Positions 1,914-37,337 of a stretch of 37,337 nt of DNA are shown here, in pieces. This DNA is from a virus: the IMG/VR virus record IMGVR_UViG_3300049076_000010, positions 1 through 37,337 of that record. One strand, given 5' to 3'. Under the pieces are notes generated by a model. It was not told the DNA's origin and made no database searches. It saw nothing but the letters and a program-made list of their open reading frames with translations. Position numbers and translations under genes: made by a program. Positions within the stretch are counted from its first letter, which is position 1. Every line of letters starts with the position of its first letter.

Positions 1914-1965
1914 AAGAACCTCGTACGGGTAGTTAGGTAAAAGGCAGAGGGCGAATCCTCGAGGC

Positions 1966-2043
1966 AGTATCTAGCCTGTAGCACCATCCGAAAGGATTGA
2001 TTAGGCCAAGCTGAAACTTGGGGTGTTATGGAGTAGGTATTTA
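1966..2043 (+). repeat. Conserved non-coding element, copy A (partner at 33386-33459)
   Basis: Three colinear blocks are shared with copy B: AGTATCTAGCCTGTAGCAC (19/19), TTAGGCC (7/7) and GTGTTATGGAnTAnGTATTTA (19/21). It ends 10 nt before the ATG at 2054. Confidence 0.7.
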
Positions 2044-2053
2044 AAGGGAATTT

Positions 2054-3061: not shown

Positions 3062-3522
3062 TATACGAACCTACCGACTAATGGCGAATAATTAGTAATA
3101 GTTTCAGTTTCCAGCGGTTTAGGCGCACGTTTAACCACGTCTAAGCTGTGTTTAGGGATGCCGAATAGCTGTACCGCCTTATACCATGCAAATGCCCTAA
3201 AGCTCAATACACCATCTTTAATGAGCCTGTCATAAAACCACTTATCGGCATAGTCTTTATAGGTTGAAGGTAAAAGCCGTTGCCCCATGAGTTTATACAC
3301 GACATCATGGCCTAGCGCCGCACATACCGTATCAGGGGTGTCGATCGTTGGGCCGCTTGCCCCATCCCATGAGAATCCTGGAAACACCGTGACATTGCCT
3401 TTTTTATCAAACTCAATCGTTTCATAATCACCGGAATAGCCTGGGGCTGGTATCTGGAAAGTAAAGATAGAATGTAGTTTCTTGCTTGAGCCTACATCCG
3501 AATAAAACACGGTGTCTGTCAT
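3061..3522 (-). CDS. DUF1353-family protein
   Basis: 153 aa. The motifs FPGFSWDGASGP and ALGHDVVYKL match the DUF1353 signature (xDGaSiP ... HDxlY) as I recall it. Confidence 0.7.
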   Translation of the reverse strand: MTDTVFYSDVGSSKKLHSIFTFQIPAPGYSGDYETIEFDKKGNVTVFPGFSWDGASGPTIDTPDTVCAALGHDVVYKLMGQRLLPSTYKDYADKWFYDRLIKDGVLSFRAFAWYKAVQLFGIPKHSLDVVKRAPKPLETETITNYSPLVGRFV

Positions 3523-3566
3523 GCTTCCCCCTGAAATTATTTAGTTTTGTTTGGAAGTAATACGCC

Positions 3567-4046
3567 TCAAGCTTCGTTATTTGAGCTTTTGTCATCACTA
3601 TTGATCACAGGTAATTTATAGTTAGGCTTTAGATTGGACACAGGCCAGCGGTAGCCAGCTACGCGGTCTCTGTTAAATGGTGCGACTGAAACTTTGTCTT
3701 TTTGATTGCCACCAATGACCAATAAACGGCCTAATTGATCAACCCCTGTGACAAGCCCAACGTGACCACCACCAGCACGATTAAACACCACGATGCAGCC
3801 ATAAGCAGGGTTTTCTAAAGCTATCCCCCAATTGAGCCAGTCTTTAGCCCTGTACCAGTGTTTAGGCAAAGGATAGCCACCGAAGCAATGCGCCATGAAT
3901 GTGCCGCACCACGGGGTTAAGTCATCTTTCCACCATGCTTTAAGCTCTGTCAGCCATTTAACGATAGTCGGGTTATTCTCTTTTCCTGGAACCTCTGTTA
4001 AGCCTTCGTGTGCATATGCTTTGACTAGCCAGCTAGGTTTAATCAT
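3567..4046 (-). CDS. Putative endolysin, NlpC/P60-like cysteine peptidase (TIGR02594-type)
   Basis: 159 aa. Candidate catalytic Cys in TPWCGTFMAHC and His in GGGHVGLVTG. ATGA overlap with the upstream holin-like gene. Confidence 0.7.
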   Translation of the reverse strand: MIKPSWLVKAYAHEGLTEVPGKENNPTIVKWLTELKAWWKDDLTPWCGTFMAHCFGGYPLPKHWYRAKDWLNWGIALENPAYGCIVVFNRAGGGHVGLVTGVDQLGRLLVIGGNQKDKVSVAPFNRDRVAGYRWPVSNLKPNYKLPVINSDDKSSNNEA

Positions 4047-21310: not shown

Positions 21311-21408
21311 GATATACCTCAGTTCTTAATAGGGTGACTATCTAAAAGCACATTAACCGATGAGAGAGATTAGGTTCGTGGGTTCGTCAGTTAGATAGTC
21401 ATAAACGT

Positions 21409-21437
21409 AAAAAACCCTATGAGGATTAGTCATAGGG
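21409..21437 (-). terminator. Strong intrinsic terminator in the late leader (tR'-like)
   Basis: The minus strand reads CCCTATGA-CTAATCC-TCATAGGG followed by TTTTTT. The stem is a perfect 8 bp. It lies about 300 nt downstream of the Q-like gene and 100 nt upstream of the first late gene. Confidence 0.75.
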
Positions 21438-21685
21438 TTGTAGTCATCTAGTACGCCGTCCAGCGTCCGAGAAAGTTAGCTTTTATACTAACAAGAAATA
21501 GTTATTGGCCTTTTATCGCTCGCCTCAAAGGTTAGGCCGACTTGTATACAAATCTTTGTTCGCAATAACTATTGCTTCTTAATACATAAATTTAGGGGGC
21601 AACTATCCTATCGTGGATTCCGCAGCCCTGTTTTTTGTCTAATGTAGATACGGTGATGTAAGTATGCGCCTACTTTTTAATAAGC

Positions 21686-21713
21686 ACAATACCTACAGAC
21701 AATATATTTTCAA
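21686..21713 (-). promoter_or_regulatory. Candidate late promoter (PR'-like)
   Basis: The minus strand reads TTGAAA-16 nt-TATTGT just downstream of the Q-like stop. A weak call in AT-rich sequence. Confidence 0.3.
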
Positions 21714-21735
21714 TTAATTATTCTAGTGAGTTTTG

Positions 21736-23936: not shown

Positions 23937-24380
23937 TTATCGTGGCCTTTCGCTGAATAAAACGCCCATACTTGCACCATCTGCATGGATTTGGTCTAGG
24001 TATTGTGAGAATCCATATTTGGTTAAATCTGTCGTACTGGCTACTAGGATAAGATTGCCTGCCGGGTCTGTGTTCCATTTCTTGTATGATTCTGGATGTT
24101 TCACTAGCTCAAACAGATACGGGTCGTTTTCTTCTGGCAGATACAAGGCTTTAAAATGCTCATGCCATACTTTGTCAATGAACTGACGGCCTTCAACGTA
24201 AGCCTGCTCTGCAATATCCTTCAATGGCCCAGCCCACATCAAGTCATTGGCGCTTTGTGAGCGCGCTTTAACTGGTTCACGCAAGACCACTTCAATGTTA
24301 TCTGGTGCATTGTCGATAGCCGCTTTCGCGGTATCACGTTGGAGTTGGCCTGTTAGTTTGATGATGCGTTGTTTAAACAT
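23937..24380 (-). CDS. ninB: NinB (lambda Orf-like) recombination mediator
   Basis: 147 aa (lambda NinB is 146 aa). RSQSANDLMWAGPLKDIAEQ parallels lambda RSLDQNRKLWACLGDVSRQ. Confidence 0.65.
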   Translation of the reverse strand: MFKQRIIKLTGQLQRDTAKAAIDNAPDNIEVVLREPVKARSQSANDLMWAGPLKDIAEQAYVEGRQFIDKVWHEHFKALYLPEENDPYLFELVKHPESYKKWNTDPAGNLILVASTTDLTKYGFSQYLDQIHADGASMGVLFSERPR

Positions 24381-25629
24381 CTTGAACCTCTAAGTTTTTG
24401 ATTTTCCAGTCTGTGCGGCGGCGTTTCATTAAATCAACGTATTTTTGGTATGCGCTAGACTTGGTTGGACTGAACCCCAAACCTTTGCACCAGTAATCGT
24501 TTTTAAGAATCGTCTTAACAACCTTACGCCATGATGGGACTTTGCCTAATGATTCAATCTTACGATCTGCTTTATCTGGTATACCGTCCGGATAACCACG
24601 CTTACTCCACCAGTTTAAATACACCGCTAGTTTGTTTTTGTAGTGTTCTCCTGTCGCGTTAGGCATGGTGTTTAATAAATGCATGGCGAAAGATTCAAAC
24701 GTATGGCCTGCTGGCAAATCAATCGAGTAGTTGCCCATGACCGCGCCTTTGTCGTTGGCATATAGCGCTCCTGTATTCGCACCAGCTACCCTTAAACAGA
24801 CTTTCGCCCACATCTGCGGCTCTACGACTTGGTATAACCACAAACCTTTCCTAGCTTCATCCCCGAATGGCTCACAGATACGCATTTGGCTTAACTTGAT
24901 TCCAGCCTGATGCATACGGTCATACAAAGCGTTGTATGGTTTGTTAAACTTACCCAAATAAGTCCAGATGTCCTTAGTTGCCATGTCGTAGATTGGATAT
25001 ACATTCCAGCAATCGTCAATGACTTTGGTTGTCCATGCTTTTTCTTGGAACTTGTCTTTCTCTCTCGCTACCGTGCGGAATCGGTTTAGGCTTTCATCTG
25101 CTCTTATGCCAACAAAGCAAGCACAGGGTTTACCATCGGCATACCATTGCCCGAACAACGGCACGAATTCTTCAAACGGCATACCTTCGTAATAAAATGG
25201 GAAGTAAGCCATATCCGTGATAGACATTGCATCCGGCTGACGTACCCATAGCTCTTGTTTCTGACTATCCCAGGAAGTCCACTCCGGCTCAATCTGGCTG
25301 CAAGCATTCCAGGTTTTAATTGGTAAGGCTATCCAGTAAGGTTCAATCCATTCTGCATATTCCTCAAACATCTGCTTGGTAAAATCTATCGTCAAACCAA
25401 TCTGGCATTCCCAGTCTAAAAACATACAGCCAATTTTACGGTTGCGTTTTTTGGCTTCTTCCATGACTAAGTGCAACATGACAGTGGAATCTTTACCGCC
25501 AGAAAAACTTATGTATATTTTTTTAAAGTTATCAAATGTAAATTCAATGCGCTGTTGCGCTGCGGTTAAAGTATCAATTCCCAATTTAATTTTTGGCATA
25601 GTTATTTTTCCAATGTTCTTTGGCTTCAT
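24373..25629 (-). CDS. PAPS-reductase-family PP-loop protein, IbrA-like
   Basis: 418 aa. PP-loop SFSGGKDST. Long C-terminal extension, as in IbrA/DUF3440-type proteins. Start may be Met11 (25599). Confidence 0.75.
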   Translation of the reverse strand: MKPKNIGKITMPKIKLGIDTLTAAQQRIEFTFDNFKKIYISFSGGKDSTVMLHLVMEEAKKRNRKIGCMFLDWECQIGLTIDFTKQMFEEYAEWIEPYWIALPIKTWNACSQIEPEWTSWDSQKQELWVRQPDAMSITDMAYFPFYYEGMPFEEFVPLFGQWYADGKPCACFVGIRADESLNRFRTVAREKDKFQEKAWTTKVIDDCWNVYPIYDMATKDIWTYLGKFNKPYNALYDRMHQAGIKLSQMRICEPFGDEARKGLWLYQVVEPQMWAKVCLRVAGANTGALYANDKGAVMGNYSIDLPAGHTFESFAMHLLNTMPNATGEHYKNKLAVYLNWWSKRGYPDGIPDKADRKIESLGKVPSWRKVVKTILKNDYWCKGLGFSPTKSSAYQKYVDLMKRRRTDWKIKNLEVQDV

Positions 25630-26044
25630 CTGCCGCTTGGTTTGCTAATGCTTGTTGCTGCTCATTTAGCATGGCCCATGCCAGTCTGGTTAAATCCTCT
25701 GGAGCATCATGATTTACCGCGCAACCTGCATGCCCTAGCCACGCCTGATGATTGATAACTGATGCACTTAAGTTAACATCTGATGAATTAGGCCAAGTAT
25801 CTACAGCTTTAATCATTGCCGCTTTAAACGCTGGAATATTCAACATTAAATCTCTGGATTGAATAATCTTTTCCCGCCTTTGCTTAACTGGGATTTGCTT
25901 CCACATATTGCCTTGATATTCTTCCATGTTGGTGAAGTGGTGATAGACGCGCTTAATCTTCAATGTCGCCCACCATTTCAATATCTGCGTAAGATTCGGC
26001 TTCCCATGCTTCGGTGAATTCTTCATTGTTGAATAACGAGGCAA
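25586..26044 (-). CDS. Hypothetical protein between the ParB-like and PAPS-reductase-like genes; start uncertain
   Basis: 152-aa ORF overlapping the ParB-like gene by 92 nt, so an internal Met (for example 25927) is likely. The motif NHQAWLGHAGCAVN is reminiscent of the N4 gp49 / Sf6 gp66 family. Low certainty. Confidence 0.45.
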   Translation of the reverse strand: MPRYSTMKNSPKHGKPNLTQILKWWATLKIKRVYHHFTNMEEYQGNMWKQIPVKQRREKIIQSRDLMLNIPAFKAAMIKAVDTWPNSSDVNLSASVINHQAWLGHAGCAVNHDAPEDLTRLAWAMLNEQQQALANQAADEAKEHWKNNYAKN

Positions 26045-26612
26045 GGCCAGTAATCTGCTGTAGCCTTAACACTTCATCAGCTTCCATGCCTAACTGTTTA
26101 GCTATTTTTTCATCAGACCAAAAGCGGCGTTTAAGCTCTACTACAATCTCGCTCATTGAATCGACTTTGTGCTTACCTCTTGCTCGATTGTGGCGAATGG
26201 TAGAGGCCATGCGGTCGCCTTTATCTTCCTGGCTTTGGCGAATCTGCACCAATGGTAAATAGCCGTGAATCCTTGCTTGAATATCTGCACATTCCTTGCC
26301 TACGCGGTGGCGGTGAAATCCATCAACCACTTCGTACTTATCCTCACTTGGCATGGATACGATCGGCTGCGTATACCCGTCAGCATCAATTGATACTCTT
26401 AGTAATTCCATTTCTACCGGAGCTACAGAGTTAGGGTTATAGTCATTAGAAAATACCGTATCGTTTTTTACCCATTTTACAAAATCTACTGGCTCTGTTT
26501 TGAACGGGCTTAAATCGTGAATAACTTGGCGTAATGTGTTGATTAAATCAACTTTGCTATCAAGCGTTTCTGATGATTCTATAGCTCGTTTAATTTGTTC
26601 TTGTAAGCTCAT
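25953..26612 (-). CDS. ParB/sulfiredoxin-domain protein, IbrB-like
   Basis: 219 aa. ParB-box-like VVDGFHRHRV and downstream STIRHNRARGKH. Confidence 0.7.
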   Translation of the reverse strand: MSLQEQIKRAIESSETLDSKVDLINTLRQVIHDLSPFKTEPVDFVKWVKNDTVFSNDYNPNSVAPVEMELLRVSIDADGYTQPIVSMPSEDKYEVVDGFHRHRVGKECADIQARIHGYLPLVQIRQSQEDKGDRMASTIRHNRARGKHKVDSMSEIVVELKRRFWSDEKIAKQLGMEADEVLRLQQITGLASLFNNEEFTEAWEAESYADIEMVGDIED

Positions 26613-28955: not shown

Positions 28956-29208
28956 TTGATAATCCCGATTGATTGTTGTTGTTTGTGGGTGAGTTCCAAA
29001 TCGGTGGAACAGGGTCAGCTAAACCTTGTCCCCACAACTCGTATGCTACACGAATTCCTACAAAAAGATAGGAATTAGTCCGACAGAACTACATATTTAT
29101 TTGCATTATTATGAAATAATTGGCACACTTTATGCCGTGAATATACAGCTGTTTAAGTCTCGTCGTTAATGTTGATTCTTCAACTACCTAGTATAAATAA
29201 CAGGTAGG

Positions 29209-29355
29209 TTAGGAGTTCTCTTTTAGCATCACTTTAATGAGGTGAATAAGCTTGTGTACGGCTTCTTTTTTCTCAGGTGTACGTTTACCTAGGGGAATTA
29301 GTTTTGATTGGTGTAAGGCGGCTTTGTAGCTGTCTGACTGCATAGTTTTATTCAC
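29209..29355 (-). CDS. Possible small protein (48 aa from GTG)
   Basis: Hand-translated: (V)NKTMQSDSYKAALHQSKLIPLGKRTPEKKEAVHKLIHLIKVMLKENS*. GGAG lies 6 nt before the GTG. Confidence 0.3.
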   Translation of the reverse strand: MNKTMQSDSYKAALHQSKLIPLGKRTPEKKEAVHKLIHLIKVMLKENS

Positions 29356-32683: not shown

Positions 32684-32863
32684 CTATTCACCAAGCTTTC
32701 TAAAATGATTAGCTAACTTTTCAATCAAGCTTGCTTTTCCATCACCAGTATTAATGATGTTGTAAAGATTCTGCTTGCTCGTACCTATTGCGCTTGCTAC
32801 TGCTGGCACATTTATTTGCTCGTCTTTAAGCTTGCGCAGCACATATTCTAATAGCGTTTCCAT
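32684..32863 (-). CDS. Cro-like small helix-turn-helix regulator (59 aa)
   Basis: Hand-translated: METLLEYVLRKLKDEQINVPAVASAIGTSKQNLYNIINTGDGKASLIEKLANHFRKLGE*. HTH at VPAVASAIGTSKQNLYNIIN. RBS ggagaagcaATG. First gene after the divergent promoter region. Confidence 0.6.
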   Translation of the reverse strand: METLLEYVLRKLKDEQINVPAVASAIGTSKQNLYNIINTGDGKASLIEKLANHFRKLGE

Positions 32864-32887
32864 TGCTTCTCCTTAACATTTAACCAA

Positions 32888-32916
32888 AGTATAATTGACT
32901 ATCGGTAAAAGCGCAA
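32888..32916 (-). promoter_or_regulatory. Early promoter for the minus-strand operon
   Basis: The minus strand reads TTGCGC-17 nt-TATACT, about 25 nt upstream of the Cro-like ATG. Confidence 0.5.
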
Positions 32917-32950
32917 GCGGTTTATGTTAAAACTTTCTTGTCTTAGGGTA

Positions 32951-32978
32951 TTGACATTAAGTTAAATATCGTTAAACT
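32951..32978 (+). promoter_or_regulatory. Early promoter for the plus-strand operon
   Basis: The plus strand reads TTGACA (32951-56), a 16-nt spacer, then TAAACT (32973-78). Divergent from the Cro-like promoter. Confidence 0.55.
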
Positions 32979-33059
32979 GGGAACCACTGAGACGCAACTC
33001 GTAAGATGAAATAAGCGTCAGCTAAGTAATCAGGACGGTTGTTTCTCAGTGTTTTATAG

Positions 33060-33222
33060 AATCTGTATTAAGTAGGTGTAATACGTAGGCGATACGGTGG
33101 AATTTGTATTGAACATGAATTTCTCATGTCTCCATCAAAGGCCCGATGGGTGAAATTAATAATGCTACACAGTTAAAGGCAACAAGCTAGGTTCGCATCT
33201 AGCCACCTACTTAATACAGATT
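33060..33222 (+). ncRNA. Candidate structured RNA domain (or MITE/inverton-like DNA element) closed by a perfect 19-bp inverted repeat
   Basis: aatctgtattaagtaggtg (33060-78) is the exact reverse complement of cacctacttaatacagatt (33204-22). The 125 nt between them contain four local hairpins (33084-96, 33114-28, 33132-49, 33186-203). No ORF. Confidence 0.35.
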
Positions 33223-33385
33223 TGCTAATCATTTAAAACAGGTGGATATAACTATCATTAAGGGGATAGATAGTAATTTCCAAAGGTTACTTTTATATGT
33301 CCACCGCTTTTAGATGATTAGAAAGAATCCTTGCAAGGTAGTTAGAAATTATAGCGGTTTAATCCGTACGTGACGATTTCACGTG

Positions 33386-33459
33386 AGTATCTAGCCTGTA
33401 GCACATGGAGGTAAGCCGAGAGGTTAGGCCGTAGAAGTGTGTTATGGACTATGTATTTA
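33386..33459 (+). repeat. Conserved non-coding element, copy B (partner at 1966-2043)
   Basis: Carries the same three colinear blocks as copy A. It ends 20 nt before the ATG at 33480. Confidence 0.7.
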
Positions 33460-33479
33460 GATGATTTAATAGGAGAGAG

Positions 33480-33662
33480 ATGATGGCAAAAACCAAGATA
33501 GAGAATTTTACTTATTTGGCAATAGATTTGGATGGGTACACAGGGCTTGGTGAAACAGTTAAAGACGCATGCCATGCCCTTGAAGAAAGAAGCGAAGGTT
33601 ATGTTCGTGACTTTACTTTTTACAGATTAACTAGAATCAATGTTGAATTGATAGAGGTTTAA
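33480..33662 (+). CDS. Hypothetical protein (60 aa), first gene of the plus-strand early operon
   Basis: ORF track. RBS aggagagagATG. Confidence 0.5.
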   Translation: MMAKTKIENFTYLAIDLDGYTGLGETVKDACHALEERSEGYVRDFTFYRLTRINVELIEV

Positions 33663-36659: not shown

Positions 36660-37319
36660 ATGAGTATCGCTACCATGATATTAGGACAATCAGGCACAGG
36701 TAAATCTACCAGCCTACGCAATATGCAACCCGAACAAACTTTACTGATTCAGGCAGTCAAAAAACCATTACCTTTCCGCGCTAAAGAATGGGCTTATTAC
36801 GACAAAGAAACCACGCCTAAAGGCAATCTATTTGTCACTGATAACTCAGCACAGATCATTAAAATAATGCAAGCCACGCAGCGCCCCATCATTATCATTG
36901 ATGACTTCCAGTATATTCTGGCAAATGAATTTATGCGCCGTGTTTTAGATAAAGAAACAGGCAATGCTGCTTTTGCAAAATACAATGAGATTGCCCGTAA
37001 TGCCTGGGATATTCTTATGGCAGCGTCAAACCTTGAAGGCAATAAGCGCGTGTATATCTTAGGCCATACGCAGGAAGATGACAATGGCAAGATTAAGGCT
37101 AAAACTATCGGCAAACTATTGGATGAAAAGATTACCGTAGAAGGCTTGGTAACGCTTGTATTACGCACGCACGTAATTAATGGGGCCTACATATTCAGCA
37201 CTAAAAATAATGGTGTGGACACCGTTAAAACGCCTTTGGGTATGTTTGAGGACGAGCATATCGAAAACGACTTGTTAGCAGTCGATAAAGCTATCACAGA
37301 GTATTACGACATTAAATAA
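36660..37319 (+). CDS. P-loop ATPase, Sak4/AAA_24-like recombination protein
   Basis: 219 aa. Walker A GQSGTGKST. Walker B IIIIDDFQ. GGAG RBS. Followed across the circular junction by the SSB-like and Gp157-like genes. Confidence 0.55.
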   Translation: MSIATMILGQSGTGKSTSLRNMQPEQTLLIQAVKKPLPFRAKEWAYYDKETTPKGNLFVTDNSAQIIKIMQATQRPIIIIDDFQYILANEFMRRVLDKETGNAAFAKYNEIARNAWDILMAASNLEGNKRVYILGHTQEDDNGKIKAKTIGKLLDEKITVEGLVTLVLRTHVINGAYIFSTKNNGVDTVKTPLGMFEDEHIENDLLAVDKAITEYYDIK

Positions 37320-37337
37320 TTTAGGAGTTATAACATG
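37211..37337. repeat. Terminal overlap copy 2, identical to 1-127
   Basis: See the first feature. Confidence 0.9.

Follow-up and report, generated by a model that had tools for sequence, protein, structure and literature searches.

In model phages, the timing of early gene expression is set by structured leaders and intercistronic RNA signals such as the lambda N leader, the put sites of HK022 and the RNase III sites of T7. To our knowledge, almost no comparable RNA signals have been described from uncultured environmental phages. Here we describe the leader at 32985-33479 of a phage contig of 37,337 nucleotides (nt) (IMG/VR record IMGVR_UViG_3300049076_000010, positions 1 to 37,337; this whole stretch is called the window below), which lies between an early promoter and the first gene of a + strand operon. 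It is a structured, putatively cis-acting early-operon leader, of a known kind, and it is made up of four modules (D1 to D4), the last of which is a copy of an RNA motif family that is new to Rfam 15 and that we call the three-box motif.

The lambda PL leader before gene N combines nutL with an RNase III-sensitive hairpin. In a nut site of the lambda type, boxA precedes a boxB hairpin whose pentaloop is GNRA-like, and an arginine-rich N protein completes the system. The window leader resembles it in being a long, structured and untranslated leader at the head of an early operon with recombination genes, with structure that comes after the promoter and ahead of the first ribosome-binding site (RBS) and with long duplexes that would fit RNase III, but its length is about double, a boxA/boxB nut site is lacking, and none of its modules is similar to lambda in sequence. 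Neither a boxB-like hairpin nor an arginine-rich small open reading frame (ORF) was found in the + strand operon, no N-like protein was found among the annotated window ORFs, and the only candidate for a nut boxA (CGCUCUUA) is a 7/8 match, CGCTTTTA at 33305, which lies inside a helix and for which we estimate a chance expectation of ~0.2.

The put RNAs of HK022 are ~70 nt long, GC-rich and two-stemmed, lie one behind each early promoter, carry the signature GAACGGC...GUCGGG...GGAUGA...CAAUG, and relieve termination in cis through contact with the zinc-binding domain in the beta' subunit of RNA polymerase (PMC9378689). What the window has in common with HK022 is a structured RNA that follows an early promoter, a lambdoid phage without N as its setting, and two directly adjacent stem-loops. 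A first-pass annotation of the window had offered a put-like antiterminator as one example of what the leader might be; putL and putR, read from the HK022 genome NC_002166, have no sequence likeness to any leader module, and the covariance model of the three-box motif found no match in the HK022 immunity region. Unlike put, the three-box motif has three helices and a tail, is AU-rich, measures 105-167 nt and occurs twice in one operon; with no copy in the - strand operon, the put-like placement behind each divergent early promoter is not seen.

The other example offered was RNA immunity as in P4 or P1 c4. The leader is like the P4 CI RNA and the P1 c4 RNA (the latter of which we take to be Rfam RF01695) in that these are regulatory RNAs within an untranslated leader having internal complementary repeats, but it has no Rfam match, so membership in the c4 family is not supported, and it has no convincing antisense target sites. 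RNA-based early control as a general proposal may still be called a reasonable idea for this leader.

The leader and its modules

The features of the leader are as follows.

32951..32978, + strand: sigma-70-type early promoter TTGACA-16-TAAACT (promoter scan, 10/12 matches)
32985..33051, + strand: D1, hairpin at the transcript 5' end (inverted repeat, pair probability 0.8-1.0)
33059..33223, + strand: D2, multi-hairpin module of 165 nt (100% complementary arms, pair probability 0.91-1.0)
33224..33322, + strand: D3, Y-shaped domain (14-base-pair lower stem, 10-base-pair upper stem 33241-50/33296-305, two apical hairpins)
33242-33313, + strand: GTG-initiated small ORF of 23 amino acids (aa), with a 25-aa counterpart at 5232-5309 of the relative L041
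33323..33463, + strand: D4, copy A of the three-box motif (covariance model, 93.4 bits)
33456..33485, + strand: pre-RBS segment UUUAGAUGAUU (a repeat of 33309-19), Shine-Dalgarno sequence AGGAGAGAG and first-gene ATG at 33480/33483 (direct repeat, inverted repeat)

The leader sits in an intergenic region of 616 nt, the longest non-coding stretch in the genome, and is followed by an orphan first gene (60 aa). The ORF scan agreed with the first-pass annotation that no credible ORF lies between the promoter and 33480, but the longest ATG-initiated peptide, which had been put at 12 aa, is one of 19 aa at 33314-33373, without a Shine-Dalgarno sequence; the longest ORF of any start type is the 23-aa GTG ORF, which spans D3. 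Transcription is predicted to start at about 32983-32986. The promoter's -35 region GGTATTGACA is kept in three contigs that share the neighbouring helix-turn-helix (HTH) gene (L004, L012 and L013), and the whole promoter is kept in L041, a mosaic relative that was reached via a homologue of the third gene of the + strand operon and that has a leader of ~280 nt behind the same promoter. A search of IMG/VR with the second gene found nothing.

Folded on the + strand, the leader reaches -158.8 kcal/mol (z -7.7, with 0 of 100 shuffles as good), and on the - strand -124.8 kcal/mol (z -5.9). All three long-range helices that had been proposed from reading the sequence are present at pair probabilities of 0.8-1.0 in the full leader fold: the arms of the first (32985-92/33044-51) extend to 17 nt, the second (33060-78/33204-22) is a perfect helix of 19 base pairs (bp) with an additional G.U pair at 33059/33223, and the third (33241-50/33296-305) has 10 bp with one G.U pair, within 29-nt arms (33222-50/33296-324). 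A modular, highly structured + strand leader is thus what the first-pass annotation saw and what we find, but its three successive domains do not stand as a conserved architecture, since the module of the second helix (D2) is missing from the only relative. Each of the four domains D1 to D4 was folded on both strands. The conserved element noted earlier at 33386-33459 is likewise present, but it is part of a larger one, 33323-33463. The leader contains 75 C as against 115 G (15% C).

That the structure is not a known Rfam family was confirmed by covariance-model searches, which gave no match for the whole window against Rfam 15 at gathering thresholds and only chance-level matches (E of at least 0.17) for 32850-33600 at permissive thresholds. 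A tRNA/tmRNA scan found none, and blastn of the leader against phage and plasmid collections gave no match. Exact and pattern scans of viral and genome collections for the D2 arm, D3 and D1 produced no true match; two D3 matches in genome contigs lie within coding regions and were dismissed as chance. The reading of the leader as a retron, an intron or a guide RNA was rejected, as no reverse transcriptase or nuclease partner is found among the ~30 annotated ORFs and there is no Rfam match.

D1 consists of an outer helix (CACUGAGA/UCUCAGUG) and an inner helix (GCAAC/GUUGU), with middle segments CUCGUAAG and CAGGACGGUU that are invariant between the window and L041. Among 15 aligned pairs, the comparison with L041 shows 5 compensatory, 2 one-sided and 0 disruptive changes. 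When folded as 32982-33054, D1 has a z of -3.9 on both strands and 1 G.U pair on the + strand. It starts ~0-3 nt from the predicted transcript start, a placement that is kept in L041. The 5' untranslated region of ompA is a 5'-terminal stem-loop that stabilises its mRNA, and D1 is like such stabilisers in its position, in L041 as well; in contrast to them, it is a branched hairpin of 67 nt with conserved internal segments, which goes beyond the needs of end protection. The TTTTAT run that had been noted after the first helix is there, but a terminator scan makes no call on it and L041 does not keep it. An intrinsic terminator or attenuator formed by helix 1 and this run is not supported: it is uncalled by the scan, the hairpin is 67 nt long and branched, there are only 4 U, and L041 has AAUGCAGG.

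D2 is closed by its perfect 19-bp helix and the terminal pair G33059.U33223, 20 bp in all, and folds about equally well on both strands (z -6.0 on +, -6.7 on -), with 7 G.U pairs on +. In L041 it is missing, and D1 passes almost straight into D3. By this comparison, D2 is a lineage-specific module, either inserted in the window lineage or lost in L041. One reading of this module is that D2 acts as DNA, as an inserted mobile or palindromic element, a protein-binding site or a replication site, and not as a selected RNA domain. Perfect 19-bp inverted repeats 125 bp apart that form a Watson-Crick closing helix, the equal folding of both strands and the absence from L041 at a clean junction all agree with it, and in the terms used for miniature inverted-repeat transposable elements D2 has the terminal inverted repeats and an apparent empty site in L041. 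However, D2 is single-copy, with no second copy in the window or in any viral or genome collection searched, and reading the junction against L041 showed no target-site duplication. There is also no iteron array, and the GC skew merely reflects the switch of transcription strand, grounds on which the leader was rejected as a replication origin too. The DNA-level reading is moreover inapplicable to D3 and D4, which need G.U pairs, and we consider it improbable for D2.

D3 folds to -36.1 kcal/mol on the + strand (z -7.2, with 4 G.U pairs) as opposed to -25.2 kcal/mol on the - strand. It is 86.7% identical to 5214-5318 of L041, including an identical block of 44 nt, and the same fold is predicted there. 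This level of conservation is not exceptional, as patches of 93-97% identity are common between the window and L041. The strand difference means that D3, and with it D4, makes sense only as + strand RNA.

Could D3 instead hide a leader peptide of 23-25 aa, initiated at GTG 33242, whose translation remodels the leader? The small ORF is open in both phages, the 6-nt length difference between them preserves the frame (VDITIIKGIDSNFQRLLLYVHRF vs VDIAIFKGDSKGSDFQRLLLYVHRF), and a codon-by-codon reading of the aligned 5' part finds 2 of 4 point changes synonymous. Yet the start codon is a GTG without a Shine-Dalgarno sequence, buried in a stable 10-bp helix; by a rough estimate, a frame that is kept and stop-free over ~10 variable codons would arise by chance with a probability of ~0.2, and the identical C-terminal part merely follows from the identical 44 nt. 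We therefore regard the peptide as very improbable.

Discrete domains closed by long helices, the 44-nt identity of D3 and short repeats with a complementary partner inside the leader (33227-37 vs 33309-19 and 33456-66) would also be in keeping with a leader that is processed into stable, trans-acting small RNAs, with D2 or D3 as the mature species, acting in the manner of P4 CI and P1 c4 or as a decoy against host defence. This appears quite improbable to us, as no Rfam family was matched, a search of the rest of the genome gave no significant antisense target (13 nt at E 0.27 for the best candidate), D2 is missing from the only relative, and the conservation of D3 is, as said, unexceptional.

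Taken as a whole, 32985-33479 is very probably a genuine structured leader RNA. Function at the RNA level is backed by covariation in D1 and D4 and by G.U-dependent strand asymmetry in D3 and D4.

The three-box motif

D4 and its second copy in the window are laid out as follows.

33329-31/33336-38, + strand: helix P1 of D4
33341-48/33388-95, + strand: helix P2 of D4
33396-33406/33437-47, + strand: helix P3 of D4
33448-59, + strand: tail of D4
33386-94 with 33449-57, + strand: alternative helix P2' of D4
1914..2047, + strand: three-box motif copy B (self-BLAST, alignment, covariance model, 99.4 bits)

The three-box motif recurs among phages and has no entry in Rfam 15. Pattern scans of IMG/VR and metagenome contigs recovered ten distinct variants besides the two in the window, all in phage contigs from freshwater lakes or groundwater, which makes 12 in total. 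The covariance model of the motif was built from 11 sequences, both window copies among them. From 5' to 3', the motif has a short hairpin P1 in the forms CCUUGCAAGG, CCCGUACGGG, CCCUUAGGGG and UCCCCCUGGGA, followed by a conserved GUAGUUAG; a helix P2 of GUUAGAUAU with GUAUCUAGC, around an insert of 0-45 nt; a helix P3 of CUGUAGCAC with GUGUUAUGG, which abuts P2 directly and has a variable tip; and a tail, AGUAGGUAUUU. Box 2 reads AGUAUCUAGCCUGUAGCAC and box 3 GUGUUAUGGAGUAGGUAUUU. In the 12-sequence alignment, 94% of cells are paired, as against ~40% when the partners are slid, and 7 pairs show compensatory change, which supports the three predicted helices. We would like to note that the P3 core was mostly fixed by the search patterns used for retrieval. 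One of the compensatory changes is in L040, where the core has GCCC/GGGC in place of GCAC/GUGU, and the four changed bases were free in its search pattern, which fixed the first five bases of the 5' strand of P3 and nothing of the 3' strand.

D4 itself folds to -38.1 kcal/mol on the + strand, with 11 G.U pairs, as opposed to -21.2 kcal/mol on the - strand, and under DNA energy parameters the structure is not adopted. In L041, D4 is replaced by a shorter sequence in which only AGCCUGUA...AUGGAG around a hairpin remains; further on, 33462-33485, a segment of 24 nt with the Shine-Dalgarno sequence and the start codon, is 96% identical to 5404-5427 of L041, although the first ORFs downstream are unrelated. 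In the motif, the 5' strand of P2 can be displaced by the tail, which yields a long P2'+P3 hairpin in place of P2+P3; in D4 these two states differ by 0.3 kcal/mol. Across the variants, the energy gap between the states runs from -3.2 to +1.6 kcal/mol in 7 of 11 and from -8.7 to +1.6 kcal/mol overall.

Run over the whole window with filters off, the covariance model finds these two copies only, both on the + strand and in one operon. Copy B lies ~6 kb downstream of copy A, between the stop of the gene at 1305-1913, which encodes a secreted glycine-rich protein of 202 aa, and the start of the gene at 2054, the first in a run of small, partly membrane-type genes. The same filter-free search detected no degenerate three-box copies in D1 to D3, and that idea was rejected, as was the reading of the motif as a sigma-70 promoter, because the spacing of the boxes varies by 35 nt and box 1 of copy B (winB) lacks the TTGCAA hexamer. 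A full-text literature search for the box sequences gave no match. A direct repeat of 36 nt (75% identity) joins 33048-33083 to 33436-33471, and ATCTAGCC also recurs at 33197 and 33389. The end of D1 together with the left arm of D2 resembles box 3, which may hint at an origin of D2 in a rearranged three-box copy, although no such copy is picked up by the covariance model.

In every carrier the motif lies in sense orientation inside an operon. It begins at or just past the upstream stop codon in ~7 lineages, with the stop of L023, L029 and L040 being a UAG inside box 1, and in most lineages the next start codon follows 7-55 nt after it. No intrinsic terminators were found flanking the motif. 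The DNA of the carrier contigs, which are mostly partial, holds no protein family common to at least 3 carrier lineages, and this absence of a shared neighbouring protein points to host machinery as the partner. One carrier lineage (L021, L028 and L035) encodes a 178-aa protein ~1.4 kb upstream of the motif, in the same orientation, which by eye looks like a sigma-70-family protein; no counterpart was recognised in the window.

The T7 early-region RNase III sites (R0.3, R0.5, R1.1 and others) are repeated, similar hairpins between cistrons. The three-box motif resembles them as a repeated hairpin with an internal loop, placed between early cistrons and just before the next RBS, its P2'+P3 form being a hairpin of ~20 bp with a 2x2 internal loop. 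The difference is that the three-box motif is spread over unrelated phages instead of being confined to one genome, and has P1 and P2 as extra helices that covary.

These placements also bear on whether the three-box motif, or the whole leader, is a protein-independent processive antiterminator of the put kind, in which the nascent RNA binds RNA polymerase and makes it resist Rho-dependent and intrinsic terminators. The leader does follow an early promoter, the genome is lambdoid and no N-like protein was detected in it, the motif is sense-oriented in the operons of unrelated phages with no common neighbour protein, as a partner in the host machinery would allow, and the adjacent P2 and P3 hairpins, with their invariant helix sequences, loosely recall the two-stem put RNA. 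Nevertheless, we judge an antiterminator unlikely. putL and putR are unlike the three-box motif in sequence and size, both window copies share one operon while the operon of Cro, replication and Q has no copy, most carriers have the motif mid-operon and not near a promoter, and scans for intrinsic terminators found none around the motif or along the + strand operon, although the same kind of scan finds a strong late terminator elsewhere in the window (see below).

Genome setting

The phage contig comes from JGI metagenome 3300071358. The window ends, 1-127 and 37211-37337, are identical, a terminal overlap of 127 nt that makes the assembly circularly closed, with the + strand operon running on from 37337 into 1-2848. 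It begins, after the leader, with orphan genes, followed by Sak4, SSB, a Gam-like protein, the secreted glycine-rich protein and further small genes, and with this gene content the leader heads the equivalent of the lambda PL operon. The - strand operon starts with the following gene.

32684-32863, - strand: Cro-like HTH gene

After it come an O-like initiator, a primase zinc-ribbon protein, a DnaB-like helicase, ParB, a PAPS-reductase-like protein, NinB, NinG, a Q-like protein, terminase and structural genes. The lambdoid layout recognised by the first-pass annotation is thus confirmed, with the Cro-like HTH, NinB, NinG and Q-like proteins all annotated.

Three other places on the - strand deserve mention. 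Immediately downstream of the Q-like gene there is a non-coding gap of 425 nt (21311-21735; RNA fold z -3.6) with a promoter-like site, TTGAAA-16-TATTGT at 21713-21686, and a strong intrinsic terminator at 21439-21413, which is a 10-bp stem followed by TTTTACGTTT; this gap looks like a late leader of the lambda PR'/qut/tR' type. In the nin region (24373-26612), the PAPS-reductase-like protein (418 aa) adjoins the ParB-like protein, and as a pair the two may serve in DNA modification or anti-defence. A stretch of 253 nt (28956-29208) that lies upstream of the O-like replication gene has no ORF of at least 45 aa on the - strand, and 28994-29354 is partly kept in L041 at 72% identity. Among the contigs that share the Cro-like HTH, L016 carries an IS605 OrfB/TnpB-type gene (3120-3606, with a Cas12f-like TNB domain) right after its replication module.

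Mode of action and significance

The helices of the leader are under selection, and the element is on the transcribed strand. The reading that we favour, tentatively and at somewhat less than even confidence, is that the leader would be a mosaic of RNA modules through which a PL-like operon controls, in cis, the stability, processing or translation of its mRNA. D1 could shield the mRNA from decay that depends on the 5' end, and dense structure together with a low C content (G>C) may keep 500 nt of untranslated RNA from serving as a Rho loading site. The perfect 19-20-bp duplex of D2 and the long hairpins of D3 and D4 are likely candidates for RNase III-type processing, as in the lambda N leader and the T7 early genes. 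Three modules offer duplexes of about 20 bp, and the near-continuous double strand of at least ~20 bp that RNase III needs is predicted in D2 (19 bp and a G.U pair), in D3 (14 + 10 bp) and, at ~9 + 11 bp with the 2x2 loop, in D4 in its P2'+P3 state, although such a duplex would be a structural prerequisite only. The three-box motif may toggle between P2+P3 and the long P2'+P3 hairpin, and this toggle could set the processing, stability or translation of the next cistron.

Several observations weigh against such a role. Folding alone leaves the strand of D1 and D2 undecided, as both fold equally on the two strands. D1 and D3 have one homologue only (L041) in the collections searched, and D2 has none. 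In nine lineages with the same HTH gene, the divergent intergenic region measures only 64-275 nt and lacks the leader except for the promoter and its first ~20 nt, and the long leader is therefore dispensable for basic operon function. RNase III, with its little sequence specificity, would by itself leave the invariant 19 nt of box 2 unexplained. Finally, the RBS is not clearly sequestered in either the P2 or the P2' state, and P2' is impossible in L024 and L037, where P2 covaries, so the two-state idea is not universal.

The last two points also count against a proposed role of the three-box motif as a switch that senses a ligand or protein (a riboswitch or translational operator) and couples expression of the downstream gene to that of the upstream gene, with the exchange of P2 and P2' driven by a bound factor or by ribosomes that terminate at the UAG codons of box 1. 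In its favour, two helices that exclude each other are built from competing strands of almost the same sequence, GUUAGAUAU and GUAGGUAUU, at similar energies, and besides the upstream ORFs that end in or at box 1, the next RBS often follows directly after the tail. However, the downstream genes are unrelated orphans without metabolic logic, and the variable regions of the motif are those that normally form a binding pocket. A switch of this kind is, in our estimation, improbable.

Beyond the favoured mosaic of cis-acting modules, the three-box motif would have its widest meaning as a new class of regulatory RNA aimed at host machinery, within a leader that serves as a composite RNA control centre in place of N and nut, a prospect that we find rather unlikely. 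Such a class, present in at least ten phage lineages besides this one, might block Rho or act as an antiterminator without a protein and without kinship to put, or else be a two-state device that couples neighbouring cistrons in their translation or processing. What the data offer is an RNA motif supported by covariation, with 12 distinct variants, that recurs in the early operons of phages from freshwater and groundwater that are otherwise unrelated, and that one genome carries twice, once inside a four-module leader. Should host RNA polymerase, ribosomes or RNases prove to be its target, the motif would amount to a new portable regulatory part, and to a further example of RNA-only control of early transcription or translation in phages.

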